A stretch of 64,000 nt of DNA. Source: a bacterium (GTDB lineage: Bacteria > Electryoneota > JAOADG01). The number at the start of each line of letters is the position of its first letter. The first letter of the stretch is position 1. The notes beneath the pieces were generated by a model. It was not told the origin of the DNA. It ran no database searches and saw nothing but the letters and a program-made list of their open reading frames with translations. The DNA lies in the NCBI GenBank assembly GCA_963681965.1, contig OY820579.1, forward strand, positions 3,520,001 to 3,584,000. Reading direction: 5' to 3'. A program made the position numbers and the translations under genes. Of this stretch, positions 3,351 through 61,141 are shown piece after piece.

Positions 3351-4730
3351 ATGAAACCGCTCCGACACCTGTTGTTTTGTTTCCTCTTCGTATTGCTCTC
3401 GACGAATTTTGCGTTCGCACAGGACAGCTCCGGCGTGACCTGTCTTGGTCGATTCTGGCACACGAACTCGCAAGATGTAGCGGTTCAAGGTAATTATGCC
3501 TATGTAGCCGACGGGTATTCCGGTTTGCGAATCATCAGCATCTCCAATCCGGCAAACCCACAACAAGTAGCCATTTGCAATTTACCCGATTATGCATATG
3601 GTGTCACCGTTTCCGGCAACTATGCCTATGTCGCCGATGAAGGATCCGGTTTACGCATCATCAATATCAGCAATCCGGAAAATCCGCAACAAGTTGGGTT
3701 CTACGATACTCCCGGTTTTGCATATGGTGTCACCGTTTCCGGCAACTATGCCTATGTTGCCGATTATCATTACGGACTGCGGATTATCAATATCAGCAAT
3801 CCGGCAAATCCGCAACAAGTTGGTTTCTACGATACCCCCGGGTATGCATGTGGTGTCACAGTTTCCGGCAACTATGCCTATGTAGCCGATGGAGGATCCG
3901 GTTTGCGAATCATCAATATCAGTAATCCGGAAAATCCGCATCAAGTCGGATTCCTTGATACGCCCGGGTTTGCACGTGGTGTCACAGTTTCCGGCAACTA
4001 TGCCTATGTTGCCGATGATTACTCTGGTTTGCGAATCATCAATATCAGCAATCCGGAAAATCCACAACAAATTGGTTTCTACGATACCCCCGGTTATGCA
4101 TATGGTGTCACCGTTTCCGGCAATTATGCCTATGTTGCCGATAGAGAATCCGGTTTACGAATCATCGATGTCAGCAATCCGGCAAGCCCGCAGGAAGTCG
4201 GTTCCTACGATACCCCCGGGTATGCATTTGGAGTAACAGTTTCCGGCAACTATGCCTATGTCGCCGACGGGGATCATGGATTGCGAATCATCAACATCGC
4301 AAGTCGGGAACATCCGTATGAGGTCGGATTCTACAATACACCCAGTTACGCATACGATTGTGCTGTGGTGGGCGATACGGTTTATCTGGCAGATGGATCA
4401 AATCTCGGCATCTACGACTGCTCGCAGGCACTCGGTGTGGTCGATCGCGTCAGCGAAACGGTTCCCACTAACTTCTCGTTGAAACCGAATTATCCGAATC
4501 CATTCAATGCGACCACTGCCATCCGCTATGCGATTGCGAAGAGCGGGAAGGTCGATCTCCGTGTATTCGATGTGGCTGGCAAAGAAGTCGCGAAACTCGT
4601 GAATTTCGAGCAGGATCCCGGTGAATACACGTTTACATTCGATGGCAAGAGTCTCGCCACCGGTACCTATTTCGTCCGCCTCACCGCCGGCAAGTTCACC
4701 CAAACCCAGAAGATCGTACTGTTAAAGTAG
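3351..4730 (+). CDS. Secreted LVIVD-repeat beta-propeller protein with T9SS type A/FlgD-like C-terminal domain
   Basis: Signal peptide ending AFA-QD, eight ~42-aa repeats GVTVSGNYAYVAD...GLRIINISNP, C-terminal YPNPFN...GTYFVRL...KIVLLK. Confidence 0.9.
   Translation: MKPLRHLLFCFLFVLLSTNFAFAQDSSGVTCLGRFWHTNSQDVAVQGNYAYVADGYSGLRIISISNPANPQQVAICNLPDYAYGVTVSGNYAYVADEGSGLRIINISNPENPQQVGFYDTPGFAYGVTVSGNYAYVADYHYGLRIINISNPANPQQVGFYDTPGYACGVTVSGNYAYVADGGSGLRIINISNPENPHQVGFLDTPGFARGVTVSGNYAYVADDYSGLRIINISNPENPQQIGFYDTPGYAYGVTVSGNYAYVADRESGLRIIDVSNPASPQEVGSYDTPGYAFGVTVSGNYAYVADGDHGLRIINIASREHPYEVGFYNTPSYAYDCAVVGDTVYLADGSNLGIYDCSQALGVVDRVSETVPTNFSLKPNYPNPFNATTAIRYAIAKSGKVDLRVFDVAGKEVAKLVNFEQDPGEYTFTFDGKSLATGTYFVRLTAGKFTQTQKIVLLK
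3474..4400 (+). repeat. Intragenic 126-bp tandem repeats (8 units)
   Basis: GGTGTCAC(C/A)GTTTCCGGCAA(C/T)TATGCCTATGT recurs at 3600, 3726, 3852, 3978 and 4104, with a variant at 4230 and diverged first and last units. Confidence 0.95.
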
Positions 4731-23646: not shown

Positions 23647-24148
23647 GGATGCTCCAGTTTGAAAGAGTGGAGAGTGTTTTTTGGATATCTTATCTTGTAG
23701 TAACCATATAGTATAGATGTTAACTCGTATCGAGCAAAATCTTCTGGCGAAACTGTAACAACAACCGATCGATCATCAGTATGATAGTCAGTTGCGTTCG
23801 GTCACCTGTTCATTAATTCAATTTTCCAATCCCAATTACAATTACTGACTATATCGAAAGCATTTTTTAACTCTCTAGTAAGCATAAACATAACAATCGT
23901 ATCGATATTTAAAACATAATTCTGCAGATTTAATTATTAAAACAAATTATTCGTATATCTAGTAAATCCACCTAAAAAGAAAAATACCCAAGAGGTTTTT
24001 ACTACATTTCCTGCTCTACTATTTGCGAAATTCAATTTCCCATTTTATCGACAACTGGAGTTAAATCTTGTATCAATGACAGTTTGTAGGTTATAATAGA
24101 ACGTTGAAGTCGGATCTGAATTCCGATTCAGTCATCGCAGGAGCAGTA

Positions 24149-24553
24149 ATGTCGCTTATCGAATGGGACGACAGCTTATCAGTCGGCTTTGAGTATCTGG
24201 ATATGCAACACCAGCGCTGGATCGTGATCATGAACGATCTGGTCGACGCCGTCAAACAAGATGAGGAAGCGACTTCCATCGGCAATATTGTCACGGAATT
24301 GAGCCGATACACAATTACCCATTTCAATACCGAAGAGCAGTTGATGGAGTCGTATGGTTTTCCGCTATTCGATGAGCATGTACTGGAACATGATGAAATC
24401 AAACAGACCATTTCGCGGATCAAATTTCAATACGATCAGGGTGAAACGGTTGACGCGATCGAGTTAATGATTTTCTTAAAGCAGTGGTTGGCAAATCATT
24501 TTCTGCAAACCGACAAATTGTTAGGCAGTTATTTAGCCGAACACCAAGAGTAG
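24149..24553 (+). CDS. Bacteriohemerythrin
   Basis: IEWDDSLSVG, D.QH, HF..EE, H...H and WL..H....D di-iron ligands all present. Start after AGGAG. Confidence 0.92.
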   Translation: MSLIEWDDSLSVGFEYLDMQHQRWIVIMNDLVDAVKQDEEATSIGNIVTELSRYTITHFNTEEQLMESYGFPLFDEHVLEHDEIKQTISRIKFQYDQGETVDAIELMIFLKQWLANHFLQTDKLLGSYLAEHQE

Positions 24554-40741: not shown

Positions 40742-40770
40742 AAAAACAAGGGTACCATCGGTACCCTTGT
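40742..40770. terminator. Terminator between the convergent GT2 and V4R operons
   Basis: AACAAGGGTACC-atc-GGTACCCTTGTT palindrome with an A-run on the left. Confidence 0.8.
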
Positions 40771-40797
40771 TCAGTTTCTTACTGATTTAATTTTTCT

Positions 40798-41403
40798 CTA
40801 CGCCTTCGTTACGACAAATTCGCCATATTCATCGCCGCATTCAATCCCTTTGGTCTGAACGCACTGGAATGTACGCAAACCCGATTTTCCGTCGGGATCG
40901 TAGGCACCACCATACGCCAGATCCATAAAAGCGGCTGCGACACCACGGATCATGTAGGCATTCATCTTGGACGAAGTACCATAACTTACGGTATCGGATT
41001 CATAATAGTCGTAAGCACGAACCACCATCTTTTCACCCGGGATCAATTCGACAATTTCGCTCTTTGCCCAACCCCAAGCGGTGAATACGGCAAACGCACC
41101 ATGTAGAATATCTTCCGGAACTTTCTCAATCATCGGTGCGACAACTGATTTCCACTCATCGGACGTTATGATACCGTACCCAGTATGATACCCGCATTCA
41201 TGTGCAGCGTTTTCCAATAGAAATTCCGCAGCCGGTAACATTTCGGTTCCAACTTTGCGCGTCAGACGGTCGGCAAACCCATTCCAGAATGTCGCGGGAA
41301 GTCGATTGACAAATACATTAAATCCGGGGATCAAACCGTCTGAGTTTTCCTGTACTTGAATTTTCGACAAGGCTTCAATTACTCTTTTACGATCGATAGC
41401 CAT
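40798..41403 (-). CDS. V4R (4-vinyl reductase)/H-NOX-TRAPP-fold domain protein
   Basis: GLIP.FNV, AWGWAKSEI, MIRGVAAA and CVQTKGIECGDEYGEFVV tail, matching V4R layout. AGGAG RBS. Confidence 0.7.
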   Translation of the reverse strand: MAIDRKRVIEALSKIQVQENSDGLIPGFNVFVNRLPATFWNGFADRLTRKVGTEMLPAAEFLLENAAHECGYHTGYGIITSDEWKSVVAPMIEKVPEDILHGAFAVFTAWGWAKSEIVELIPGEKMVVRAYDYYESDTVSYGTSSKMNAYMIRGVAAAFMDLAYGGAYDPDGKSGLRTFQCVQTKGIECGDEYGEFVVTKA

Positions 41404-41415
41404 CGGAATCTCCTT

Positions 41416-41952
41416 TCAAATTGCCGCTACTTCGAATTTGGATGAAGGGGCACCGCAGACAATACTTGCGGATTCCACGGAATTGTAGGAGCGAGCAGGC
41501 TTATCGAAAATTGCCGCGAACATCGCATTGATAAAGCCCTGTCCGATAAAATTTATCGGTCGATCGTGTTTGCCCCACTTCTTGATCCATCCTTCGTCGA
41601 CATGTGAATGAATCAGTTCGATCTCTCCGGAATCGGTACCGGCATAAGACACATTCATCTTACCCAAACCGAAAAATGCAAAGAATTGTTCCGCAATTGA
41701 AATGCGATCGGCAATTGCTTCAATTCCCTCGTCATCGAAATAATCGACGAAAATGGGATAAAAGGAATCCTCGGCAACCTCAGCCAATAGTTTTTTGGCA
41801 TCGAGCAATGAGCAATCTTCTGCCAACTGCGAGTAGAGTGACATATAGTGATGACAATGCAACACGGTCGTCACACCATTGAACGATTGACGACACCGTT
41901 TCGGATCGAATTCGGGATTGATTGTCAATGCGACTTTTTTGATAACTGCCAT
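41416..41952 (-). CDS. Second V4R-like protein with N-terminal HCHHY motif
   Basis: FGLGKM, HS.VDEGW, PINFIGQGFINA and VESASIVCGAPSSKFEV tail. AGGAG RBS. Confidence 0.65.
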   Translation of the reverse strand: MAVIKKVALTINPEFDPKRCRQSFNGVTTVLHCHHYMSLYSQLAEDCSLLDAKKLLAEVAEDSFYPIFVDYFDDEGIEAIADRISIAEQFFAFFGLGKMNVSYAGTDSGEIELIHSHVDEGWIKKWGKHDRPINFIGQGFINAMFAAIFDKPARSYNSVESASIVCGAPSSKFEVAAI

Positions 41953-41963
41953 CGTCAATCTCC

Positions 41964-42155
41964 TTACACTTCCGGCGCATCTTTGCCGGTAATTTCTTTG
42001 AACGCATTCTTAAACTTCGTGATAGTTACGGGATCGTCGGGCACCAATGGCGCTTTATTCGACGGTATTCCAGTTTTCATCGCAAGTCGAACAGTAAAAA
42101 CTACACCGCCGGCACTTTCGATTTCTTTGAAATACTTCTCCAGTTTAACTCCCAT
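41964..42155 (-). CDS. Small (63 aa) helical hypothetical protein
   Basis: Strong GGAGG RBS, fills the gap in the operon, sequence GG..FTVRLAMKTGIPS.KA...PD.P. Confidence 0.75.
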   Translation of the reverse strand: MGVKLEKYFKEIESAGGVVFTVRLAMKTGIPSNKAPLVPDDPVTITKFKNAFKEITGKDAPEV

Positions 42156-42187
42156 GTTACCTCCTATCTCACCTCTCGTAGAATAAA

Positions 42188-42475
42188 TTAATCGACCGAA
42201 TTGAGAAACTCGATCAGTTGTAAATCAATTTCTTGGCGATTCGACTGAGGAAGAAAGATTCGCAGATATGCTTCACCTTCGATCCCCTTGATTTCAAAAC
42301 CAGTTTCACTGCGTACACGAAAGAAAGGACGGGGAAAATCCGTGAAATACTCCAAGATCCCCAGCTCTTTTAATCGCTCGATCCGGATTGTCGTCCAAAT
42401 AGTGTCGAGATGCCAAATCACTATGGCGCTACCATCGGTGCACTGGTCTACAATTTCAATCGTTGTTCGCTTCAT
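42188..42475 (-). CDS. Small (95 aa) hypothetical protein with a single Cys (QCTDGS)
   Basis: ATGA-coupled to the cysteine desulfurase stop codon. Confidence 0.7.
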   Translation of the reverse strand: MKRTTIEIVDQCTDGSAIVIWHLDTIWTTIRIERLKELGILEYFTDFPRPFFRVRSETGFEIKGIEGEAYLRIFLPQSNRQEIDLQLIEFLNSVD

Positions 42476-43611
42476 CGTTTCAATTTCGCTACAGCAGCTA
42501 CAGTATATTCGATTTCATCGACAGTATTAAACGACGAGAGACTAAACCGGATCGTGCCATCCGGAGAACTTCCCAAAGAGGGATTAATCAACGGAGCACA
42601 ATGCAATCCTGCTCGACACTCAATTCCGAAACTTTCCTGCAGCACCATCGCAGCATCGTCGCAATTCCAACCGCTAAGATTGAAAGAAACGATTCCGACA
42701 GCAGGTGCATCCGTTGCTCCGTAAATTGTTACCCCTTTGATTTGACGAAGTCCATCGATCAAATATTTTCGCAACCTCGCAATTTCTTGATGAATTGTTG
42801 CAGCATTCGATCGATACCACTCAACGGCACGAGACATTCCTGCTATTGCAGGAATATTCATCGTTCCGGCTTCGTGGCGCATCGGTAACTCGGGTGGATG
42901 GAATTCCAGAGTACTCCGTACACCTGTTCCACCGACGATCAGTTGACTCAATTCTAAATCGGTTGCACAAAGCATTCCGGCGATTCCGGAAGGTCCATGC
43001 AATCCTTTATATCCCGTGAATGCGATGATATCTGCCGACAATTTGTTCGCATCCAAATCGATCGCTCCGACCGTTTGTGCGGCATCGAGCAAAGTAATCG
43101 ACCCGGCAGATTTCGCAGCGGCGAACAGTCGCTGAATCGGAAAAATCAAGCCCGTAACATTCGAGGCGTGCGTCATTACGACTAATTTCGGTCTCCGAGC
43201 CAGTGCAAGCTGATATTGCATTTCATTTAACGATCCATCCGGCAACAAATCGACTAGTATCAGCTCGAACGGAATCCGCTGTTGAAGATGACGTAACGGT
43301 CGCAATACCGAATTGTGTTCTGCAAGGGTTGTCACAACACAATCGGACGGTTGAAGATCGATTCCGAAAATCGATAAATTTAACGCATAAGTAAGATTGG
43401 GGGTGAAGATGATTCGCTCGGGTAGATTCCAATGAAACATTTCCGCAAGCGTTGTTCGAGTCGGATTCACCCAATCGTATCGAAGAACCGATCCCCGTCC
43501 AGCATGTGCGGGCGGCTCATTCATAACATCACAGACAGTCTCCGTAACATTCGGTGCTACCGGAAATCCACCTGCGGCATTATTCAAATAAATTTTCTTT
43601 GCATCGACCAT
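42472..43611 (-). CDS. Cysteine desulfurase family protein (class V PLP enzyme, SufS/CsdA-like)
   Basis: EHNS, HASNVTG, DAAQ, PLP-Lys in TGYKG, EAGT and catalytic Cys in RAGLHCA. Confidence 0.9.
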   Translation of the reverse strand: MVDAKKIYLNNAAGGFPVAPNVTETVCDVMNEPPAHAGRGSVLRYDWVNPTRTTLAEMFHWNLPERIIFTPNLTYALNLSIFGIDLQPSDCVVTTLAEHNSVLRPLRHLQQRIPFELILVDLLPDGSLNEMQYQLALARRPKLVVMTHASNVTGLIFPIQRLFAAAKSAGSITLLDAAQTVGAIDLDANKLSADIIAFTGYKGLHGPSGIAGMLCATDLELSQLIVGGTGVRSTLEFHPPELPMRHEAGTMNIPAIAGMSRAVEWYRSNAATIHQEIARLRKYLIDGLRQIKGVTIYGATDAPAVGIVSFNLSGWNCDDAAMVLQESFGIECRAGLHCAPLINPSLGSSPDGTIRFSLSSFNTVDEIEYTVAAVAKLKR

Positions 43612-43874
43612 TAGTAGTAATAAACTATGTCAATTTCTTCTTGACAATATGCGATCGTAATTGGTTAAAAATTTATCGGTTCATATTGAAACCGACTGTA
43701 ACGTAACGATTTTCGACAATAGAATTAACGGTTTGAATTGTTATCGGGTGAATCCCGCAATCGTGCGTCTTTGTTGTTTTTGATTGGATCTAAACAGAAT
43801 TTTTAGTAACTTATCGGGATTATTATTTCTAATTAATAATTACAACTTCAAATTATCCATCAGCGGTGGTTGAT

Positions 43875-45881
43875 ATGCGACTGAAAAATATTTTTTTCTT
43901 ACTTCTACTCTTCATATTCATCGGAGTAACAATTTGCGCTGCAGAAGTGAAGAAAGATCCTTTAGATCGCGCACTCTCCGATCTGCAATTGACACGAGCA
44001 AGCTTACAAGTAGATCCAACATTTATGACCCTTCGCAGTACTGCAACCCGATGGCAATTACCGATTTTTGATGTCTGGTTCAATCACCCGTCGGAAATTC
44101 CGTTCTGGGAAAGTCAAATTCGAACCGGGCTACATAATTCGGAGGGTAGATTGCACAATCTCCAGCTCAATTCGGCTTCATTACTGGGTTGGGGCACTCG
44201 TCGCGAATTAATTCCACCCTCTCCCGCTCAGCGAATTTGGGCACTCGCGCAAGAGCCGAATGCATTGGAGAACGCGATTCACTCACTCGATAGTTCTGCA
44301 ATTATTCCAGATGTTTCACAATTACCAATCTCACTTCAGCACTCGATTGCCGCGATATTGTTCGGTGCAAACAACGCGTTACAATGGCGGAATGAAGCGT
44401 TACGTAAGCTCTCTGCCGTGGAACGCGATTCCTTGTATCATACGCTTGCTCAACCCTCGGAGTTGCCGAAGAGTATTACCGATACAATGCAAACTTCCAC
44501 TCCCCAATTTGAAGTCAGCGGATATCATTGGTTGATCGATCATCTCGATGAAATCGATTACCGCTCGATGATGGCAGGTGCCGACGATTTTACTGCTACC
44601 ATCGATATGGTTCTCGATTCGTTGCCGATATCAACTACTAAGCAATCATTTCAGTTCAGTTGCAAGACTCGTTACGGTTGGATCGAAGTTAATGGATCGA
44701 ACTCTGACAATTATATCGCAAATCGACACTATCTACTCATTTTCGATACCGGTGGAGACGACATTTACGAAACAGGTGGTTGTACCAGCAGTGCAGAACT
44801 TCCCATCGGTATAACGATCAATCTAGCGGGAAATGACACGTATCGAAATTCGACCCGGAAACCGGCATTCGGCGCTGGAATTCTCGGTTACGGTTTTCTA
44901 ATCGATGCGGAAGGAAACGACCATTATATTTCGGATTACTATTCACTAGGATCCGGTGTTGCTGGTAGCGGGATTTTATGCGATTATTCCGGCGACGATT
45001 CGTATCGCTCGATCAGCTCGGCTCAGGGATTTGGTTTTTGCGGAACCGGAGTATTGGCTGATAAATCCGGCAACGACCGCTACGAAGCCTTTGTTCAAAG
45101 TCAAGCCTGTGGGTTGCCGCAAGGAACTGGTTTACTGATCGATCTAGCAGGTGACGATCATTACATCGCGAATGATAGTTTGATTGAATTTCCCAGTGCC
45201 CAAACCAAAGAGCACAATTCCAGTATGTGCCAAGGGGCTGGTTTCGGTTTTCGACGCGACTTCATCGATGGTCAATCGGTCGCGGGTGGATTCGCTTTTC
45301 TTTACGATGCCGCCGGAAACGACGAATACTTTGGCGGCGTTTTCGCTCAAGCAGTTGGCTATTGGTATGGAATCGGCGTTGTTGACGACAACGATGGCAA
45401 CGATTCCTACCGAGGTGTCTGGTACAATCAATCGGCAACTGCACACTTCGGCGTTAGTTATATCCACGATCGCGCTGGTGACGATCGCTACAAATCGTTG
45501 ATGACGATGGCAATGGGCGCAGCTCATGATTTCTCAGTTAGTCTGCTGTTCGATGAGCACGGAAACGACCGGTACGACGCTGCTTCGAATGCGGTTGGAC
45601 GCTCGCTGAATAGTAGTGTCGCACTGTTTGTCGATCAATCCGGTGACGATTGGTATAGTGTCAGTGCGAATCTCGGTGAATGTCTTAATGAATCATCCAT
45701 TGGTATCCGGGCAGCAATGGCGAGCATTGCGATCTTTCTCGACCTTGATGGAAACGATAAGTATCTGAACACAAAATTCTTGAATGGAAAGTCGAGGATC
45801 CAAACAGTTTCAGCTCCGTTACCTAAACTTTACGGAATCGGTGCCGATATCAATCAAAGTTCACCGCTTCGCTGGCGCTAG
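43875..45881 (+). CDS. Secreted hypothetical protein with repeated L.D..G.D.Y motifs
   Basis: Signal peptide, about 12 Gly-rich repeats such as DTGGDDIY, DAEGNDHY, DYSGDDSY, DKSGNDRY and DLDGNDKY. Confidence 0.8.
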   Translation: MRLKNIFFLLLLFIFIGVTICAAEVKKDPLDRALSDLQLTRASLQVDPTFMTLRSTATRWQLPIFDVWFNHPSEIPFWESQIRTGLHNSEGRLHNLQLNSASLLGWGTRRELIPPSPAQRIWALAQEPNALENAIHSLDSSAIIPDVSQLPISLQHSIAAILFGANNALQWRNEALRKLSAVERDSLYHTLAQPSELPKSITDTMQTSTPQFEVSGYHWLIDHLDEIDYRSMMAGADDFTATIDMVLDSLPISTTKQSFQFSCKTRYGWIEVNGSNSDNYIANRHYLLIFDTGGDDIYETGGCTSSAELPIGITINLAGNDTYRNSTRKPAFGAGILGYGFLIDAEGNDHYISDYYSLGSGVAGSGILCDYSGDDSYRSISSAQGFGFCGTGVLADKSGNDRYEAFVQSQACGLPQGTGLLIDLAGDDHYIANDSLIEFPSAQTKEHNSSMCQGAGFGFRRDFIDGQSVAGGFAFLYDAAGNDEYFGGVFAQAVGYWYGIGVVDDNDGNDSYRGVWYNQSATAHFGVSYIHDRAGDDRYKSLMTMAMGAAHDFSVSLLFDEHGNDRYDAASNAVGRSLNSSVALFVDQSGDDWYSVSANLGECLNESSIGIRAAMASIAIFLDLDGNDKYLNTKFLNGKSRIQTVSAPLPKLYGIGADINQSSPLRWR

Positions 45882-46024: not shown

Positions 46025-47914
46025 ATGACAGAATCGCTTTCACCAGTATTATTAAAACAGGCACTTGACTTTGCGATAGCTGTCGCACTAGATGCTGGCA
46101 AAAAACTTCGTGATGAATGGCACCGCCCATCGGGACCTAGAGGAATGGGCAGTCAAGCCGAGATCGATGTAATTATCGAGACTTCAATTCGCGCGAAATT
46201 GCTGGATGAATTTCCCGAGTGGGGATTTCAGGGAGAAGAAACCCGCCCACATTTATTCCCCGATGGTCAACCGTACTGGTGTGTCGATCCGAACGATGGT
46301 ACAATCGAATATGTAAAAGGTACCCGCGGATCAACCGTATCGATCGGTCTTATCTACAATCATCAACCTGTTCTCGGTGTTGTTTTTTCACCGATGTCTC
46401 CGGATGATGATGGTGATTTATTCACTTGGTGCGAAGGTGAACCTGCGTGCCGAAATGGCAATTTATTGCCGATGTTATCGTCCGATGTAATGGTCGAAGA
46501 TCAGGTGATGCTCGCGGCGATGAATGCCGACAAGAAATTTCATGTCAACTTAATGCTGATCGCTCCGGCTCGATTCCGGATTGCCAACAGTATTGCCCAC
46601 CGTCTCGCATTGACCGCAGCCGGCGAAGCCGACATCGGTGTGTCGATCAACAATCCGAAGAGTTGGGATATCGCCGCTGGTCATGCAATTTTGCGTGGTG
46701 TCGGTGGAATAGTCTGTAGCGAATTGGAACAGCCAATCGAGTATACTGCCCATGGCGAATTGACACATCACGGAAAATGGCTCTACGGCGGACATCCATC
46801 GATTATCTCGATGTACGCCGACAACAGTTGGGAAGAGATTTTTAAAGTTAAACCCGATATCACTGGATTAGACGAACCACCGTATCCAACGCGATTGATA
46901 CCGGGTCTGCATTTCCGCGGTGAATCTGCGATTCTGCGACGGGCACATGGTTGCCTGATCGGTCAGTTGGCGGGCGATGCGCTAGGAACCACAGTCGCGT
47001 ATCGCATGACTGATGAAATTTCGAGCCGTTATCCCGAAGGACAACCCTTGACGATGCAAGGGGAAGGTGCTTGGGATACTCTGGCAGGTCAACTTTCCGA
47101 TGCGTCGGAATTGGCGCTAATGCTGGCACGATCGATCGTCTCCGGACGCTGTTACGATGCCGAAACGGCAGCTCGGTATTACACCTGGTGGTTTCGCAGC
47201 GACCCGTTCGATGTCGGAAATACGTTACGAAATGCATTGGAAGCGGCAACTGAGGCTCGCTTTGCCGTTGCGGTAACCGCCATTGCTGCCGCCAGTCGCT
47301 ACCGGATGAGCGAAGCGAGTGGTGCTTTGATGCGCGTTGCACCGTTGGGGATCTACGGGTGGCAGATGAATCCCGACACCCTTGCCGAAGATGCAATGCT
47401 CGATGCACAGCTAACTCATGCTTCACCGGTCTGTTTAGGAGCCAATGCCGTATTTGCGATAGCGATTGCTTCGGCGATTCGCACTGGCGACCGCAATGAA
47501 ACCTATCAGACGGTTTTGCGCTGGGCAAAAATTCATGCGATCCCGGCAGTAACCGATGCGATCACTGCAGCACAATCCGACCTACCCGTCGACTACCTCT
47601 CCAACAAAGGATGGGTTCTGGTCGCACTGCAGAATGCCTTCTACCACTTTCTCCGTGATGACAAGATCGAACCGGCAATCGAGGCTACTATTCGACGCGG
47701 TGGCGATGCCGATACCAATGCCGCGATCTGCGGTGCGTTGCTGGGAGCATTACTCGGGCGCGAGGCAATTCCGCTATTATGGCGTAAAATGTTATTGAGC
47801 TGTCATCCGGCGGATGGCTTTGCCCACATTCAACAACCCCGTCCCCCGGCGGCGTGGGGTACTGATGCAGAAACTCTCGCAGAATTATTGCTCGTATCAG
47901 GGTTGGATAAATAG
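46025..47914 (+). CDS. Inositol monophosphatase-family / ADP-ribosylglycohydrolase fusion protein
   Basis: N-terminal GEE, WCVDPNDGT and WDIAAG (IMPase); C-terminal GDALG, GQLSD, GALMR and GGDADTNAAICGAL (ARH/DraG). Confidence 0.88.
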   Translation: MTESLSPVLLKQALDFAIAVALDAGKKLRDEWHRPSGPRGMGSQAEIDVIIETSIRAKLLDEFPEWGFQGEETRPHLFPDGQPYWCVDPNDGTIEYVKGTRGSTVSIGLIYNHQPVLGVVFSPMSPDDDGDLFTWCEGEPACRNGNLLPMLSSDVMVEDQVMLAAMNADKKFHVNLMLIAPARFRIANSIAHRLALTAAGEADIGVSINNPKSWDIAAGHAILRGVGGIVCSELEQPIEYTAHGELTHHGKWLYGGHPSIISMYADNSWEEIFKVKPDITGLDEPPYPTRLIPGLHFRGESAILRRAHGCLIGQLAGDALGTTVAYRMTDEISSRYPEGQPLTMQGEGAWDTLAGQLSDASELALMLARSIVSGRCYDAETAARYYTWWFRSDPFDVGNTLRNALEAATEARFAVAVTAIAAASRYRMSEASGALMRVAPLGIYGWQMNPDTLAEDAMLDAQLTHASPVCLGANAVFAIAIASAIRTGDRNETYQTVLRWAKIHAIPAVTDAITAAQSDLPVDYLSNKGWVLVALQNAFYHFLRDDKIEPAIEATIRRGGDADTNAAICGALLGALLGREAIPLLWRKMLLSCHPADGFAHIQQPRPPAAWGTDAETLAELLLVSGLDK

Positions 47915-52056: not shown

Positions 52057-54255
52057 CTAGCGCAGCAAGATTAATTTCTGTGTCTTGGTCACCGATCCCG
52101 CTTGCAATCTCAAAAAGTAGGTTCCGGATGCGAGTGTTTTTCCATCGAAATGGACGCGATATGTACCGGGATGCTGCGAGAAATTGACTAGCGTACCAAT
52201 CTCTCGCCCCTGCAGATCGAATACCTTAAGATCGACATGAGTCGTTGCAGGTAATGTGTACTCGATCGTAGTCGTGGCATTGAACGGATTGGGATAATTT
52301 GGTTTTAGTGTGATGGATTGCGGGAGTGCAGTCGATACCCGGTCGACAATCCCGAGTGCTTGCGCGACATCGTATACCGCGAACAACGTCTGTCCGACAG
52401 TAAATATTCGGTTGCCGCCATAGACCATCTTATTGGTATAAAAAGCGTTTTCGTCGTACCCGATTTCGCGGAGGTGCAATGGATCGGCAATATTCAGGAC
52501 ACGCAGCCCACCGGAACCGTAGCCAAATAAATAATTCCCCGAAACAAGAATCGAATTGAAAAAGGCGATATCACCATTCGCGTAAGCCGATACTTGAATA
52601 ACTAAATCAGGTATTGCGAAACGATAAATACGGAGCGAATCGGAAAAGGCGACGTACAGATAATTTCCTTGGAATGCCAAATCGGAAAAATAGTCGAGCG
52701 AATCCATCACGATGAGATCCGGAAAACCGATTCGACCCATATTCTGCAGCTCAATGCAAGAATTCGATGAAAAGATGGCAATACTGTCGGAAATTTGAAT
52801 CTTCGTGTAATTTCGATCTGGTTGATCAAAGTCGGCACCCCAAGCCGAAACAGGACTTGCCGGATCAGAGATATCGTACGCTTTCAAAGAATCGTCTGAT
52901 ACATATTCGATTGTATAGGCATAGTTTCCGCGAATATCAAAATCGAATATTATATGATTACCAAATTCTGCAATCTGGCGTGGCTGTGCTGGATTACTGA
53001 TATTGAATACACGGATACTGTCCCACCCCATCAAGTAGGCATAATTGCCGGAAATTTTCACTTTTTGCGCATACGTATGCGTTGGCACACGGCTGATTTG
53101 TACCGGGGTCGCGCCTGCAATATTGTAAACTCGTAACCCCGAATTACCATCGGCGAGATAGCAATAATTTCCTGAAACGGCAATATCTTCGGCAAAGCCG
53201 TCGAGATAAAATCCTCCAAGCGTTGAAATTTGGCGGGGAAGTGTGACGCGATTGATCCAGAGACCTTGCGCCAAATCCACGATATACATCGTGTCGTTTT
53301 GAAAAACGACATTGTAGGGTGATCCAACTGTGCGAAGAGAATTCCCATAGTAGCTTTCGATGTACTGCGGTGTTTGCGGAGTGGAAATATCGATAAGGTG
53401 AATGGCGTTAGTATTACCGAACCAGTAAAGTGTATTCCCGTATTTAACGATGTTTCCCAACGAAGAATTCAGGTTACCATTACTTCCGGTTAATACCGGT
53501 GCAGCGGGATTGGCGATATTCACGGCATCGACCAGCGTCGAATCATTCGGAATGTACGCATAATTACCCGAGATCAGCGGTTTGTTTCTTCCGGTGTACT
53601 CCCCGTGATGAAGAATACAAGCACCGAGCCAGCGCGGTGCTAGAATATTGGCGAAACTGTAGATATTCAAACGCAGAGTATCATTCACGATATTTGTGAC
53701 AAAGGCGAGCGAGTCGGATAACGTGAGATTGCATAAACCGGGAACGGCATGTGTCGTCACCAAGCTCGGTTGAGCATGATTCGCGATATTAAAGATGAAT
53801 ATCGAATCACCGGGAATGACAACCGCCATCAAACTGTCGCGCACAATGATATCGCTCGGCATCCCACTCAGAGTCATGAAACCAAGACTGCTGGGATGCG
53901 CCGGATCGGTTATATTGAATGTGTAGATTCCTTGATAATCCTGATCATCATTGTATTGATAACCGGTAATCAAAGCGTAGTTACCGGATAATGCGATTTT
54001 ACTGTCGTAACCGATGTTCGCGGCTAAGTGGCTCACTTCGCTGGTCGCAGCGGGATTCGATACATTCACCACAACCAATTCGCCATTCGTCGCCAGGTAG
54101 GCTAAGTTGCCGCGAATCGCCACATCGAAGACATATCCGACGTGGAGACGTTGCTCGAAAGTGCACGAGACACCGGAACTGTCTTGCGCAAAAGCAGTCA
54201 GAGAAATTAAACTACCGATGAATACAAAGACAGTGAATAGATTCTTCGATCTCAT
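52057..54255 (-). CDS. Secreted LVIVD-repeat protein with T9SS/FlgD-like C-terminal domain
   Basis: Signal peptide then AQDSSGVSC, diverged LVIVD repeats, YPNPFN...KLILLR. Confidence 0.88.
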   Translation of the reverse strand: MRSKNLFTVFVFIGSLISLTAFAQDSSGVSCTFEQRLHVGYVFDVAIRGNLAYLATNGELVVVNVSNPAATSEVSHLAANIGYDSKIALSGNYALITGYQYNDDQDYQGIYTFNITDPAHPSSLGFMTLSGMPSDIIVRDSLMAVVIPGDSIFIFNIANHAQPSLVTTHAVPGLCNLTLSDSLAFVTNIVNDTLRLNIYSFANILAPRWLGACILHHGEYTGRNKPLISGNYAYIPNDSTLVDAVNIANPAAPVLTGSNGNLNSSLGNIVKYGNTLYWFGNTNAIHLIDISTPQTPQYIESYYGNSLRTVGSPYNVVFQNDTMYIVDLAQGLWINRVTLPRQISTLGGFYLDGFAEDIAVSGNYCYLADGNSGLRVYNIAGATPVQISRVPTHTYAQKVKISGNYAYLMGWDSIRVFNISNPAQPRQIAEFGNHIIFDFDIRGNYAYTIEYVSDDSLKAYDISDPASPVSAWGADFDQPDRNYTKIQISDSIAIFSSNSCIELQNMGRIGFPDLIVMDSLDYFSDLAFQGNYLYVAFSDSLRIYRFAIPDLVIQVSAYANGDIAFFNSILVSGNYLFGYGSGGLRVLNIADPLHLREIGYDENAFYTNKMVYGGNRIFTVGQTLFAVYDVAQALGIVDRVSTALPQSITLKPNYPNPFNATTTIEYTLPATTHVDLKVFDLQGREIGTLVNFSQHPGTYRVHFDGKTLASGTYFLRLQAGSVTKTQKLILLR

Positions 54256-54509: not shown

Positions 54510-55599
54510 TACCGTTTCTCATAAATAGTGTCGCATTGTTTCTTATCTTTATTTCATGCGACCTTTATCTCCTAATCCTGCGAATGGTACTTTGGACGAG
54601 ATCGAAGAAGCCCTTCGTTGTTCGGTTGACCATGACGAGCACTGTCGCTTTCAAGGGATTAAAATGCTCTTGTTAGGGTTACCGGACAATCAAGTTTGTC
54701 AAGTGTTGTCGGTTGTACCGCGATCTTTACAGCGGTGGGTTCAGCATTGGAACGCCGGTGGCATTGACCGTTTGAAACGGATACCGCGACCGGGACGACC
54801 GCGCAAAGCTAACAAAGAACAACGGTTTCTGGTTGTCGATTGGCTTACCCATCCCGAGCAGCACGGACAGACACACTGGACACTACGCAAGTTGCATGGC
54901 GTATTGCGTAGCGAACTACGCATCGAATTGGGCTATTCCACGCTCGCCCGTCTTGTTCGCGATGAACGATTTGCCTTGAATATGCCGCGATCCTGGCCGG
55001 CAAAACAGGATGCCGAGGCCCGGTTGGCTTTCACAGAACTGCTGTCGTCGCTGCTTGCCAGCGATCCCAATCGGATTTGGTTCTACGACGAAAGCGGCAT
55101 TACCGGCGATCCACGCCCGCGCCGACGCTGGATGCGGAAAGGAGAACGACAAACGGTTCCCTTTACCGGCACCCATTTGCGGGAAAACATTTTGGGCGCG
55201 GTACAACCCTTATCCGGTCGGTTGTTTTCGCTGCAAATGCCGGAAGTGGATCGGGAACTGTTCCAGATTTTCCTTGACCACTTCGCCGAATATACCAAGG
55301 GCGAAAGGGTAACAATGGTGCTGGACAATGCCAGTTGGCACAAGGTTAAATCGTTAAACTGGCATCATATTCAACCAATATTCTTGCCACCCTATTCACC
55401 CGATCTCAACCCGATAGAACGATTGTGGTTGTATATCAAAGAGCATTACTTCAACCATTGGTACAGCAAGTCCAGAGAAGAACTAAGAGATCGGGTAACA
55501 TGGGCAATACAACAGCTACTCAATCAACCAGAAATTGTAAAATCTGTAACACGAGTGTGAGAGTAAATCACAATGCGACACGATTTTCAAGAAATGGTA
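54510..55599 (+). mobile_element. IS630-family insertion sequence
   Basis: Terminal inverted repeats (TA)TACCGTTTCTCATAAATAGTGTCGCATTGT and reverse-complemented (TA)TACCATTTCTTGAAAATCGTGTCGCATTGT, 27/32 identical including TA. TA duplication at 54508-54509 and 55600-55601. Confidence 0.92.
54556..55560 (+). CDS. IS630 transposase
   Basis: HTH with GRPRK, DDE triad FYDES / VLDNA / LPPYSPDLNPIERLW, uninterrupted ORF. Confidence 0.95.
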   Translation: MRPLSPNPANGTLDEIEEALRCSVDHDEHCRFQGIKMLLLGLPDNQVCQVLSVVPRSLQRWVQHWNAGGIDRLKRIPRPGRPRKANKEQRFLVVDWLTHPEQHGQTHWTLRKLHGVLRSELRIELGYSTLARLVRDERFALNMPRSWPAKQDAEARLAFTELLSSLLASDPNRIWFYDESGITGDPRPRRRWMRKGERQTVPFTGTHLRENILGAVQPLSGRLFSLQMPEVDRELFQIFLDHFAEYTKGERVTMVLDNASWHKVKSLNWHHIQPIFLPPYSPDLNPIERLWLYIKEHYFNHWYSKSREELRDRVTWAIQQLLNQPEIVKSVTRV

Positions 55600-58924: not shown

Positions 58925-61141
58925 TTACTTGAGCAACATTAATTTCTGCGTCTTCATCGTGGAACCTGCTTGCAATCGCAAAAAGTAGGTGCCGGATGCG
59001 AGCGATCGTCCATCGAATTGAACGCGATACGTCCCGGGATGCTGCAGGAAATTGACCAGTGTGCCGATCTCTCGCCCCTGCACATCGAATACCTTGAGAT
59101 TAACGTGACTCGTCGTCGGTAGTGAATATTCGATAGTAGTGCTGTTGTTAAAGGGATTCGGATAATTTTGCTTTAGTTCGAAATTCTGTGGCAATTCGGT
59201 TGAGATGCGATCGACAACGCCGAGGGCTTGGGAAACGTCGTAGATATTGAAATAGGTACCGCAAGCGGAATATAAGTGCGAACGATCGATCAGGTAGTTC
59301 ATTGGACTCACGGCTTGTTCGAAAAAGCCGACTTCATGTGGGTGTACGGGATCGGAAACATTTAATACTCTTAGTCCTGCTCCCCAGCCGAACAAATAAT
59401 CGGAATTCGTAAGAAAATTATAATAAATCTCACTTCCCTCATTGTGATAGTACCCCGTCACCGTGATGGTATCGGGATTGGCAATGTCATACATCCACAA
59501 CGTATCGTATGTTCCACAATAGAGGGTGTTACCGTGAATGGAAAAATCGTAACATTCACCGTTCGTGTAAATATGATGATGAGTTAGACGATCGGGGTGA
59601 CTTATGTTGATAGTCTCTAATCCATTATCTGTAGCCAAGTAAATAGTACTGTCTTTCAGAAGTAATCTGGTATTAAAATAGGGCAAACTTCCAATACTGA
59701 TCGATCCTAGTAAAATCGGATAAGCTGGATTTGCCACATCGAATGTCTTCAAATAATCATCGCCGGCATATCTGATATAGGCATAATGCGATGAAACAGC
59801 CATATCTATCGGAACACAATCTTGAAATGCGAGACCACCCGACCGTACCGGTGAAGTTAGATTGCTGATATCATAAATTAAAATAGAGTCTGCACAAAAG
59901 ATATAAGCATAATGACCAACGGTATCGATTCGCGTGACCGGTGAATTGAATTGCATTTGACTAATAGAAACGGGCATTGTTCCACTGACATCATAAATAC
60001 GCAATCCTGCCGTACCATCGGCGAGATAACAATGATTATTCGAGATCGCGACACCACAAGCATCGCCGTTGTCAAAATACCCACCCAATTCTGAAATCTG
60101 GGAGCCATTCTGAATGCGATTGATCCATAGTCCGCGACTATAATCTACGATAAACATCGTATCATGGCTGAAAAAAAGATTGTATACACATCCTAAACTA
60201 TTGGTCGAATCGCCACAATACGATTCCGAATGCAATAAGACTGGCGCACTTGGGTTGGATACATCGACAATATGGATTTCCTGTTGATCGCCGTACAAAT
60301 ATAAGTAGTTTCCAAGTTTCGCGATTCCGGGAAATCCATGCGATACGAAATGAGTCGTACTGATAACTGTCGGAGCATCGGGATTGGCGATATCGATCAC
60401 ATCGACCAGCGAAGTGTCGCTTGGTACATAGGCGTAATGTCCATCGATCACCATTTGATTGATATACTGATAATGATCGCGTTGATGCAGATTGCAGGAT
60501 CCGCGCCATTGCATCGAATCCGGTGAGATAAAGCGATATGTCAAAAATTGCATCGTGTCGTTTACCAGCGAAGTCGCGTTCAAATTTGAATCGGCAATTG
60601 CGAGGTAGCGAAAACCCGGAATGACGTAATCCCGAAGTCGCACGGGATGATGCAAGCTGGATAATCGATAAAATGTGACCGTATCGGCTGAGCAATTGAA
60701 CGAGAAGATACTGTCGTTCAGAGCGAAGATCTTCGGTTGGTGGTTGTAGTCGAACGATAATCGCGCAGTATCGATTAGAATTGGATGAACAGGATTACTG
60801 ATGTCAAAAACATATACTACGCGAAGAAATTGAGGAACATATACACATCCTGTAATCAAGGCATAGTTACCCATTAGTGCGATCTGCGCAGTAACCCCGC
60901 CTTTTAATGGAGTATAGAACTGCTCTTGCGGCGAAGCGGGATTGGTAATGTCTACAACGATAAATTCATCATTTGTTCTTACGAAAGCATAATGATCGCG
61001 CACAACGGAATCGTAGATTCGACCGGGATGTAATCGTTCGCGATAGTTACAACTGACACCGGAACTGTCTTGAGCGAATGCTGAAAGAGAAGTGAGAAAA
61101 ACCGCAAGAAAGAAAACAGGAGTAGCATATTTCCGAAGCAT
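58925..61141 (-). CDS. Secreted LVIVD-repeat protein with T9SS/FlgD-like C-terminal domain (paralog)
   Basis: AFAQDSSGVSC start, LVIVD repeats, YPNPFN...KLMLLK. Colinear with 52057..54255. Confidence 0.88.
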   Translation of the reverse strand: MLRKYATPVFFLAVFLTSLSAFAQDSSGVSCNYRERLHPGRIYDSVVRDHYAFVRTNDEFIVVDITNPASPQEQFYTPLKGGVTAQIALMGNYALITGCVYVPQFLRVVYVFDISNPVHPILIDTARLSFDYNHQPKIFALNDSIFSFNCSADTVTFYRLSSLHHPVRLRDYVIPGFRYLAIADSNLNATSLVNDTMQFLTYRFISPDSMQWRGSCNLHQRDHYQYINQMVIDGHYAYVPSDTSLVDVIDIANPDAPTVISTTHFVSHGFPGIAKLGNYLYLYGDQQEIHIVDVSNPSAPVLLHSESYCGDSTNSLGCVYNLFFSHDTMFIVDYSRGLWINRIQNGSQISELGGYFDNGDACGVAISNNHCYLADGTAGLRIYDVSGTMPVSISQMQFNSPVTRIDTVGHYAYIFCADSILIYDISNLTSPVRSGGLAFQDCVPIDMAVSSHYAYIRYAGDDYLKTFDVANPAYPILLGSISIGSLPYFNTRLLLKDSTIYLATDNGLETINISHPDRLTHHHIYTNGECYDFSIHGNTLYCGTYDTLWMYDIANPDTITVTGYYHNEGSEIYYNFLTNSDYLFGWGAGLRVLNVSDPVHPHEVGFFEQAVSPMNYLIDRSHLYSACGTYFNIYDVSQALGVVDRISTELPQNFELKQNYPNPFNNSTTIEYSLPTTSHVNLKVFDVQGREIGTLVNFLQHPGTYRVQFDGRSLASGTYFLRLQAGSTMKTQKLMLLK

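Follow-up and report, generated by a model that had tools for sequence, protein, structure and literature searches.

Why is a cysteine desulfurase encoded in one tight operon with two small proteins and two stand-alone proteins of the V4R fold? The question is raised by a locus in a 64,000-nucleotide stretch of DNA (hereafter the window) from a bacterium of the Electryoneota (GTDB lineage JAOADG01; GenBank assembly GCA_963681965.1, contig OY820579.1, positions 3,520,001 to 3,584,000 of the forward strand). The list of open reading frames (ORFs) and the reading of the sequence gave five tightly coupled minus-strand genes with a closing terminator, encoding a pyridoxal phosphate (PLP) dependent desulfurase and four proteins designated here p95, p63, p180 and p201. 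The original prediction, made from the DNA letters alone, had sulfur or selenium flowing from the desulfurase through p95 as carrier to a heterodimer of the two V4R proteins, with p63 as adaptor. Our analysis confirmed that the five genes are a real cassette of many bacteria and some archaea, and we consider, with a probability of about 0.5, that it codes for a cytoplasmic sensor complex and for a sulfur maturation module belonging to that complex. The gene structure, its co-conservation, the fold and the paralogy of p180 and p201, their natural fusion, the predicted binding of p63 and the linkage to chemoreceptors all emerged from the computation and are described below.

The coordinates, the overlap, the gaps and the ribosome-binding sites given for the operon were all found again when the sequence was re-read (Table 1). 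The desulfurase and p95 genes share an ATGA stop/start overlap (42472-42475). The following gaps are 32 bp between p95 and p63 with GGAGG, 11 bp between p63 and p180 (to the ATG at 41952) with GGAG, and 12 bp between p180 and p201 with AAGGAG. The p180 ORF could alternatively be read as 180 residues from a TTG at 41958 (41416-41958); the homolog alignments agree with the ATG start. The terminator hairpin starts 26 bases past the p201 stop. All of the motifs listed previously (RAGLHCA, QCTDGS, RLAMKTGIPS, INFIGQG, MIRGV, HCHHY and HECGYH) are present in the translations.

The five-gene arrangement is not due to chance, as homologs of all five genes stay together in other genomes. A collection with one genome per species contained 184 stretches encoding a relative, and the best 80 were analyzed as loci. 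By tblastn, all 80 of these loci contain p201, 78 contain p180, 74 p63, 62 p95 and 57 the desulfurase; some of the misses are due to contig ends. The co-conservation of the desulfurase with the V4R pair, on which the proposal depended, was thus borne out by the neighborhood comparison. The order p63-p180-p201 was kept in all 74 loci having the three genes, and p63 was always directly upstream of p180. In 42 loci the desulfurase gene preceded these genes on the same strand, in 12 it followed them, and in three it was upstream in inverted orientation. Its linkage to the p63-p180-p201 trio has therefore outlasted rearrangement, which argues for a function and for selection on the linkage. One clade has the trio but neither the desulfurase nor p95. 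A DUF3034 protein was encoded in or beside the cassette in only four of the 80 loci (L002:4218-5177, L003:4213-5193, L065:6456-7412 and L009:3883-4797), in L002 and L003 between p95 and p63.

The bacterial loci were distributed in Planctomycetota, Acidobacteriota, Armatimonadota, Myxococcota, Thermodesulfobacteriota, Verrucomicrobiota, Bacillota, Spirochaetota, Pseudomonadota, Ignavibacteriota and others, and the archaeal loci in Thermoplasmatales and Woesearchaeota. The distribution was patchy. The cassette was detected in five of the 79 genomes of its own phylum and in five of 401 sampled Acidobacteriota, and it was not found in a genome of the same genus that is 96% complete. The cassette tree conflicted with taxonomy: an archaeal clade was nested in the bacteria, and Treponema grouped with Peptococcaceae. 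Horizontal spread of the cassette is the simplest reading of these phylogenies. No description of the cassette was found in the literature, subscription journals lying outside the search, and neither the combination of V4R with cysteine desulfurase nor that of 4-vinyl reductase with methyl-accepting proteins was treated jointly in the literature searched. The literature on V4R and chemotaxis includes PYP-V4R fusions and ParA-linked V4R immunity systems, neither of which, in the passages on V4R, corresponds to the cassette. The earlier statement that no described pathway of this make-up was known stands within the same limits of the search.

At the level of sequence families, p63, p95, p180 and p201 had no Pfam or NCBIfam match at E<=1 beyond chance level, and p180 and p201 did not match the Pfam V4R family (PF02830) even at E<=1. 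Comparison of the profiles of the four proteins with PDB sequences gave nothing usable, only two chance matches (a His-tag and SOS1). The V4R fold claimed for p180 and p201 became visible in the predicted structures and not by the Pfam profile. Models made with AlphaFold from the alignments of related loci reached a predicted local distance difference test (pLDDT) score of 93.7 for p180 and 87.1 for p201. In Foldseek, the p180 model matched PoxR, MopR and DmpR with template modeling (TM) scores of 0.76-0.78 (E 8e-9 to 6e-8), and the p201 model matched MopR, PoxR and DmpR with TM scores of 0.67-0.70 (E 7e-7 to 2e-5). Weaker matches included Bet3/TRAPP, the V4R protein MJ1460, BcsD, YslB and H-NOX. 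V4R-named clusters were nearest to p201 in the ESM Atlas, with DUF5943/V4R clusters also among the neighbors.

Comparison of the p180 and p201 profiles (hhalign probability 91%, E 1e-6, 117 columns) indicated that the two proteins are distant paralogs. In p180, the residues H32-C33-H34-H35 are invariant in 56 of 56 sequences, and H22 and H117 are nearly invariant. In p201, C70 (50 of 50 sequences) and E188 are invariant and H73, E69 and C181 nearly so; C189 is variable. Thus, the HCHH motif of p180 and the cysteine of the HECGYH motif of p201 (Cys70), both noticed in a single genome, proved to be conserved in homologs. Mean column identity was 75% for p201, 57% for p63 and 54% for p180. A total of 1558 p201 homologs were detected at E<=1e-3; the best 120 of them, including the protein of the window itself, were 73-100% identical, and every one of these named by its source was called hypothetical. 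The p201 homologs of near length were all about 200 residues long and had no fusion to AAA+ or DNA-binding domains. The longer forms found were p180-p201 fusions and one chimera that is likely a deletion product.

The nearest structural relatives are the A domains of the sigma-54 activators PoxR, MopR and DmpR, whose fold is predicted for both p180 and p201. According to PMC7264223, the DmpR sensor domains interlock through residues 18-45, the zinc ligands are Cys151, Glu172, Cys177 and Cys185, and phenol is held between His100 and Trp128. The tightly intertwined N-terminal dimers described there resemble the pair proposed for p180 and p201. As possible counterparts of the DmpR-type Cys-Glu-Cys-Cys site, p201 keeps C181 and C189, which like Cys177 and Cys185 of DmpR are eight residues apart, plus E188, a comparison of spacing only. 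The zinc site appears incomplete in p201 and absent in p180, which has no conserved Cys in the corresponding region. Unlike the activators, p180 and p201 stand alone, have no similarity to them detectable in Pfam or in PDB sequences, and are proposed to form a heterodimer of paralogs with a 63-residue third subunit. They also carry extra invariant His/Cys motifs (HCHH and C70), and the cassette has a desulfurase and chemoreceptors as neighbors instead of genes for aromatic catabolism.

Natural fusions of p180 and p201 were represented by seven protein clusters of 387-405 residues that matched p201 over nearly its whole length. In the one fusion cluster that was checked, residues 8-167 were 40% identical to p180 and residues 202-394 were 65% identical to p201. 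A p180-p201 heterodimer of the DmpR sensor-domain type is the natural reading by analogy, and the V4R heterodimer proposed earlier fits these fusions. The adaptor role suggested for the 63-residue protein also gained ground, as p63 is predicted to bridge both V4R proteins (ipSAE 0.92). With p63 as the scored partner, the interaction prediction score from aligned errors (ipSAE) was 0.91, 0.92 and 0.93 over three runs, and the best control reached 0.00. Of 157 solved complexes, 116 attain the benchmark mark for this score, compared with 2 of 215 mismatched pairs. The partners had a pLDDT of 88 or more, and all contacts (100%) recurred between the runs; these contacts are predicted between p63 residues 18-34 and both p180 residues 42-49 and p201 residues 54-65. 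In these models, p63 would clamp p180 and p201 together.

The chimera mentioned above, the 433-residue P0278, joins a truncated desulfurase, a p63 remnant and most of p180. It was the one protein obtained when longer forms of p180 were sought, came from one 3.9-kb metagenome contig, probably represents a deletion or an assembly chimera, and was discarded as evidence of fusion.

The desulfurase matched Aminotran_5 (PF00266) with E 1e-64. Its NCBIfam scores, with the cut-offs in parentheses, were 335 bits for TIGR01977 (377), 260 for SclA (525), 192 for SufS (475) and 122 for CsdA (494). It reached no curated cut-off of the named equivalogs TIGR01977, SclA, SufS, CsdA, NifS and IscS. By these profiles, it is a relative of the TIGR01977 and SclA families and a member of no named equivalog. 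Among 57 sequences (the window protein and 56 cassette homologs longer than 300 residues), the PLP lysine K202, the catalytic C338 and the RxGxHC loop are present without exception. The enzyme thus has the profile, the PLP lysine and the catalytic Cys of a class V aminotransferase or cysteine desulfurase, and the catalytic Cys reported as intact is invariant. The RxGxHC motif is the mark of type II desulfurases, enzymes that depend on a dedicated acceptor. The cassette enzyme is considered an extra copy, because the host genome contains at least four other strong class V aminotransferase genes.

The candidate for such an acceptor is p95. Its residues C12 and G64 do not vary among the 42 sequences aligned, against a mean column identity of 35%, so that the single Cys seen in the window protein is conserved throughout. 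The p95 and desulfurase genes overlap or abut in 46 of 54 same-strand pairs, 26 of the 46 sharing a four-base overlap, and the two genes are translationally coupled. At locus L028, the desulfurase and p95 are read as a single frame of 468 residues. The p95 family comprised 499 representatives at 50% identity, and the best 150 were all stand-alone proteins of 82-134 residues. Several loci have p95 beside the trio without the desulfurase; therefore, p95 is tied to the complex more closely than the enzyme is. These sequence patterns suggest that p95 is likely a dedicated sulfur acceptor or delivery partner of the desulfurase.

The pair resembles SufS-SufE, CsdA-CsdE and SufS-SufU in having a class V PLP enzyme with an invariant PLP lysine and an RxGxHC catalytic loop. 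As in other type II desulfurase/acceptor systems, a coupled small protein with one invariant Cys comes after the enzyme. However, the enzyme scores under the SufS, CsdA, TIGR01977 and SclA cut-offs, p95 matches none of the SufE/CsdE, SufU, TusA and rhodanese families in Pfam or NCBIfam, no scaffold or Suf/Isc genes are located near the cassette, and the presumed target of the pair is a sensor-fold complex.

A connection between the pair and the complex was suggested by p201 Cys189. Loci with neither gene nearby were counted as lacking both where their flanks extended to 1.8 kb or more; six with shorter flanks were excluded, which left 74 informative loci. The residue is Cys in 60 of 65 loci with the desulfurase or p95 nearby, and in three of nine loci that have neither despite adequate flanks. 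In the tree of p180 plus p201, the entries without the pair and without C189 formed one clade of nine (support 98) and one other entry. C189 was the sole p201 column at least 85% conserved outside the pair-less clade and lost inside it. A p95 profile search detected a copy in none of six whole genomes of that clade, and a copy elsewhere in two of four genomes that keep C189 without an adjacent pair. The loss of Cys189 in the clade without desulfurase and p95, which amounts to about one event, would be consistent with a sulfur link to the complex.

Neighboring ORFs of all 80 loci were clustered to find recurrent families, and only two extra families were detected. Of the 80 loci, 29 encode methyl-accepting chemotaxis proteins (MCPs, PF00015), 16 encode CheA/CheW/receiver-type proteins, and 35 encode one or the other. 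An MCP gene was within 400 bp and co-directional in 24 loci, on many separate branches of the tree. The adjacent MCPs were diverse, with PAS, CZB, dCache, HAMP or nothing, and had no common N-terminal domain. Several consisted of a two-helix membrane hairpin with no periplasmic domain, which is the layout of transducers taking input from a partner. A few immediate neighbors were of other signaling types (SpoIIE phosphatase, Ser/Thr kinases, receiver-DUF4388 and CheC), and the immediate neighbors besides MCP/Che proteins had no common theme among the 92 proteins scanned. The receiver-DUF4388 proteins were encoded directly upstream of the trio (L077:3933-5246 and L078:513-1607). The host genome has MCP genes, none of them in the window, and MCPs were also encoded elsewhere in all five of the tested cassette genomes that have none beside the cassette.

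This recurrent linkage, which was not part of the original prediction, points to a sensor rather than to a biosynthetic sulfur relay. MCP/Che genes recur beside the cassette across lineages, as for a chemoreceptor-coupled sensor, the coupling itself being predicted from gene neighborhoods. H-NOX and other soluble sensors are encoded beside chemoreceptors or kinases. The cassette shares with H-NOX-type sensors a small stand-alone cytoplasmic sensing protein beside a separate transducer gene, and H-NOX structures were among the weak fold matches. It differs from H-NOX in that the trio is predicted to be a three-subunit complex with its own sulfur-mobilizing pair.

From these observations a possible mechanism can be outlined. 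The paralogs p180 and p201 would pair as a heterodimer, like the intertwined homodimers of PoxR, MopR and DmpR, and p63 would clamp them, the trio being the functional core. The desulfurase would move sulfur from cysteine onto its Cys338 and hand it to Cys12 of p95. From p95 it would pass to the complex, with Cys189 of p201 or its surroundings as the most likely point of delivery. The sulfur might there build or recharge a sulfur-containing site, in the form of a persulfide or of a small metal-sulfur center, with the HCHH of p180 and C70, H73 and C181 of p201 as likely ligands. The state of this site, set by redox, oxygen, nitric oxide or sulfide, may then be relayed to separate transducers: in many genomes the adjacent chemoreceptor, and here one encoded elsewhere. 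In its most detailed form the proposal is tentative, and we regard it as doubtful in its particulars. It would define a new class of heterotrimeric V4R-fold sensors, spread over some archaea and upwards of a dozen phyla of bacteria. In these sensors a private desulfurase-carrier pair would install and recharge, at Cys189, a sulfur-derived group (a persulfide or polysulfide, or a small metal-sulfide center) held by His and Cys residues, and the sensors would report sulfide, redox or gas to chemoreceptors and other transducers.

Several points weigh against the reading as a sensor with a sulfur maturation module. How the sulfur moves, where it is accepted, which cofactor results and what signal is sensed are what we infer. 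Searches of Pfam and NCBIfam (no family at E<=1), of PDB sequences by profile (empty) and of the ESM Atlas (only unnamed clusters, with a recognition score under the usual mark) gave p95 no likeness to known sulfur carriers. The complex contains only three or four conserved cysteines, few for a classic iron-sulfur cluster, and its assembly from p63, p180 and p201 is a model prediction on alignments made for this analysis. The C189 pattern needs two changes on the tree and thus represents about one evolutionary event, not a statistic; five loci have the desulfurase and/or p95 and no C189, and four have C189 and no adjacent pair. The conservation of p201 across phyla exceeds the expectation for a sensor. 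No signaling gene adjoins the cassette in this window according to the Pfam scan, and 45 of the 80 loci have no MCP/Che-type gene within 6 kb.

The main rival to the sensor reading is an enzymatic role, in which the trio is a small enzyme or substrate-handling complex, the PLP enzyme and p95 make or modify a sulfur metabolite, and the chemoreceptor link reflects related taxis. V4R proteins are found in enzyme or substrate roles, such as BchJ and the V4R subunit of dimethylamine monooxygenase, and the DUF5943/V4R clusters among the Atlas neighbors would suit such a role. The 75% mean column identity of p201 is like that of an enzyme, the patchy and seemingly horizontal spread (5/79 and 5/401) is typical of accessory metabolic cassettes, and the loci without a signaling neighbor agree with it as well. 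However, no transporter, redox partner or further enzyme was co-conserved among the 92 neighbor proteins, the best structural matches are ligand-sensing domains, and a co-directional MCP is directly adjacent in 24 of the 80 loci. We regard an enzymatic role as unlikely.

Somewhat less probable again is that the trio is an ordinary MopR-type small-molecule sensor without a sulfur site, the desulfurase and p95 serving another purpose, such as general iron-sulfur or thiolation supply, and only traveling with it. The strong fold match to phenol sensors, the absence of the zinc-site cysteines from p180 and the clade having the trio without the desulfurase and p95 would all be expected of such a sensor. 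Yet 65 of the 74 informative loci have the desulfurase or p95 next to the trio, and the three desulfurase arrangements (42 upstream, 12 downstream and three inverted) argue for a selected linkage. The genome already has other class V desulfurase-like genes, the C189 pattern speaks against this reading, and the invariant His/Cys motifs are absent from phenol sensors.

A role of the PLP enzyme as selenocysteine lyase, in a cassette dealing with selenium instead of sulfur, as the original prediction had left open, is very improbable: SclA is the second-best named NCBIfam match, but its 260 bits are far under the cut-off of 525, and the presence of SelD with an in-frame TGA in the host carries no weight because SelD is near-universal in the phylum (73/79). 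SelD was present in four of the five other cassette genomes tested first. Across cassette-bearing Acidobacteriota, it was found in six of 11 (G085, G334, G347, G494, G495 and G497) and not found in G084, G186, G232, G496 and G498, which are metagenome bins in which absence is not proven; the background in the phylum was 301 of 401 sampled genomes, including the unpublished G116, G141 and G239. Loci L011, L020 and L033 carry the desulfurase and p95 in genomes, again metagenome bins, where no SelD was found. The proposed flow of selenium is not supported. The SelD gene of the host itself (G000:C1:4177383-4178309, outside the window) has one in-frame TGA, as in most of the phylum, a pattern expected of a selenocysteine-containing SelD.

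Table 1. Positions of the cassette genes and flanking elements in the window.
Feature	Position	Strand	Basis or remark
Desulfurase, class V PLP, 379 residues	42472..43611	-	Aminotran_5 match, invariant K202/C338
p95, 95 residues, single invariant Cys (C12)	42188..42475	-	ORF list, homolog alignment
p63, helical, 63 residues	41964..42155	-	ORF list
p180, 178 residues from ATG at 41952	41416..41952	-	XylR_N+V4R predicted fold, HCHH motif
p201, 201 residues	40798..41403	-	XylR_N+V4R predicted fold; C70 invariant
Intrinsic terminator-like hairpin	40744..40772	-	13-pair stem, 6 G-C pairs, then T-run
Intergenic region between cassette and divergent 671-residue gene; presumed promoter region	43612..43865		

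A Pfam scan of the 46 other ORFs of the window detected no suf/isc, thiolation, molybdenum cofactor, sel or signaling gene adjoining the cassette, in agreement with what had been said of the neighborhood. A promoter scan of 43612-43865 gave one weak sigma-70-like match (9/12) at 43851-43822, at a frequency not above that in shuffled sequence. One flank of the cassette encodes glycosyltransferases and a polysaccharide deacetylase according to Pfam. The other encodes a 671-residue protein and then a fusion of inositol-monophosphatase and ADP-ribosylglycohydrolase. The 671-residue protein (43866-45881, plus strand) is divergent from the cassette, has no Pfam family, and contains a hydrophobic N-terminus and many short G-x-D-x-Y-like repeats. 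The fusion protein has 629 residues (46025-47914, plus strand), with an inositol-monophosphatase-family domain joined to an ADP-ribosylglycohydrolase domain. Elsewhere in the window are three LVIVD-repeat proteins with a Por_Secre_tail sorting domain of type IX secretion (3351-4727, 52060-54255 and 58928-61141), a DDE_3 transposase with helix-turn-helix domains (54556-55557, plus strand) about 11 kb from the cassette, and a stand-alone hemerythrin-domain protein (24104-24550, plus strand) amid cell-wall and shape genes. The Por_Secre_tail proteins hint at an organism from the group related to Bacteroidota.

Four of the five proteins of this widespread cassette nevertheless lack a family name, and few unnamed proteins are likely to be as strongly conserved as p201. 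Experimental handles are offered by Cys12 of p95, Cys338 of the desulfurase, the HCHH of p180, and Cys70, Cys181 and Cys189 of p201. If the reading as a sensor complex with its own sulfur maturation module is true, the cassette would be a new input device for bacterial and archaeal chemotaxis and signaling, and the first sensor with its own sulfur-delivery line.

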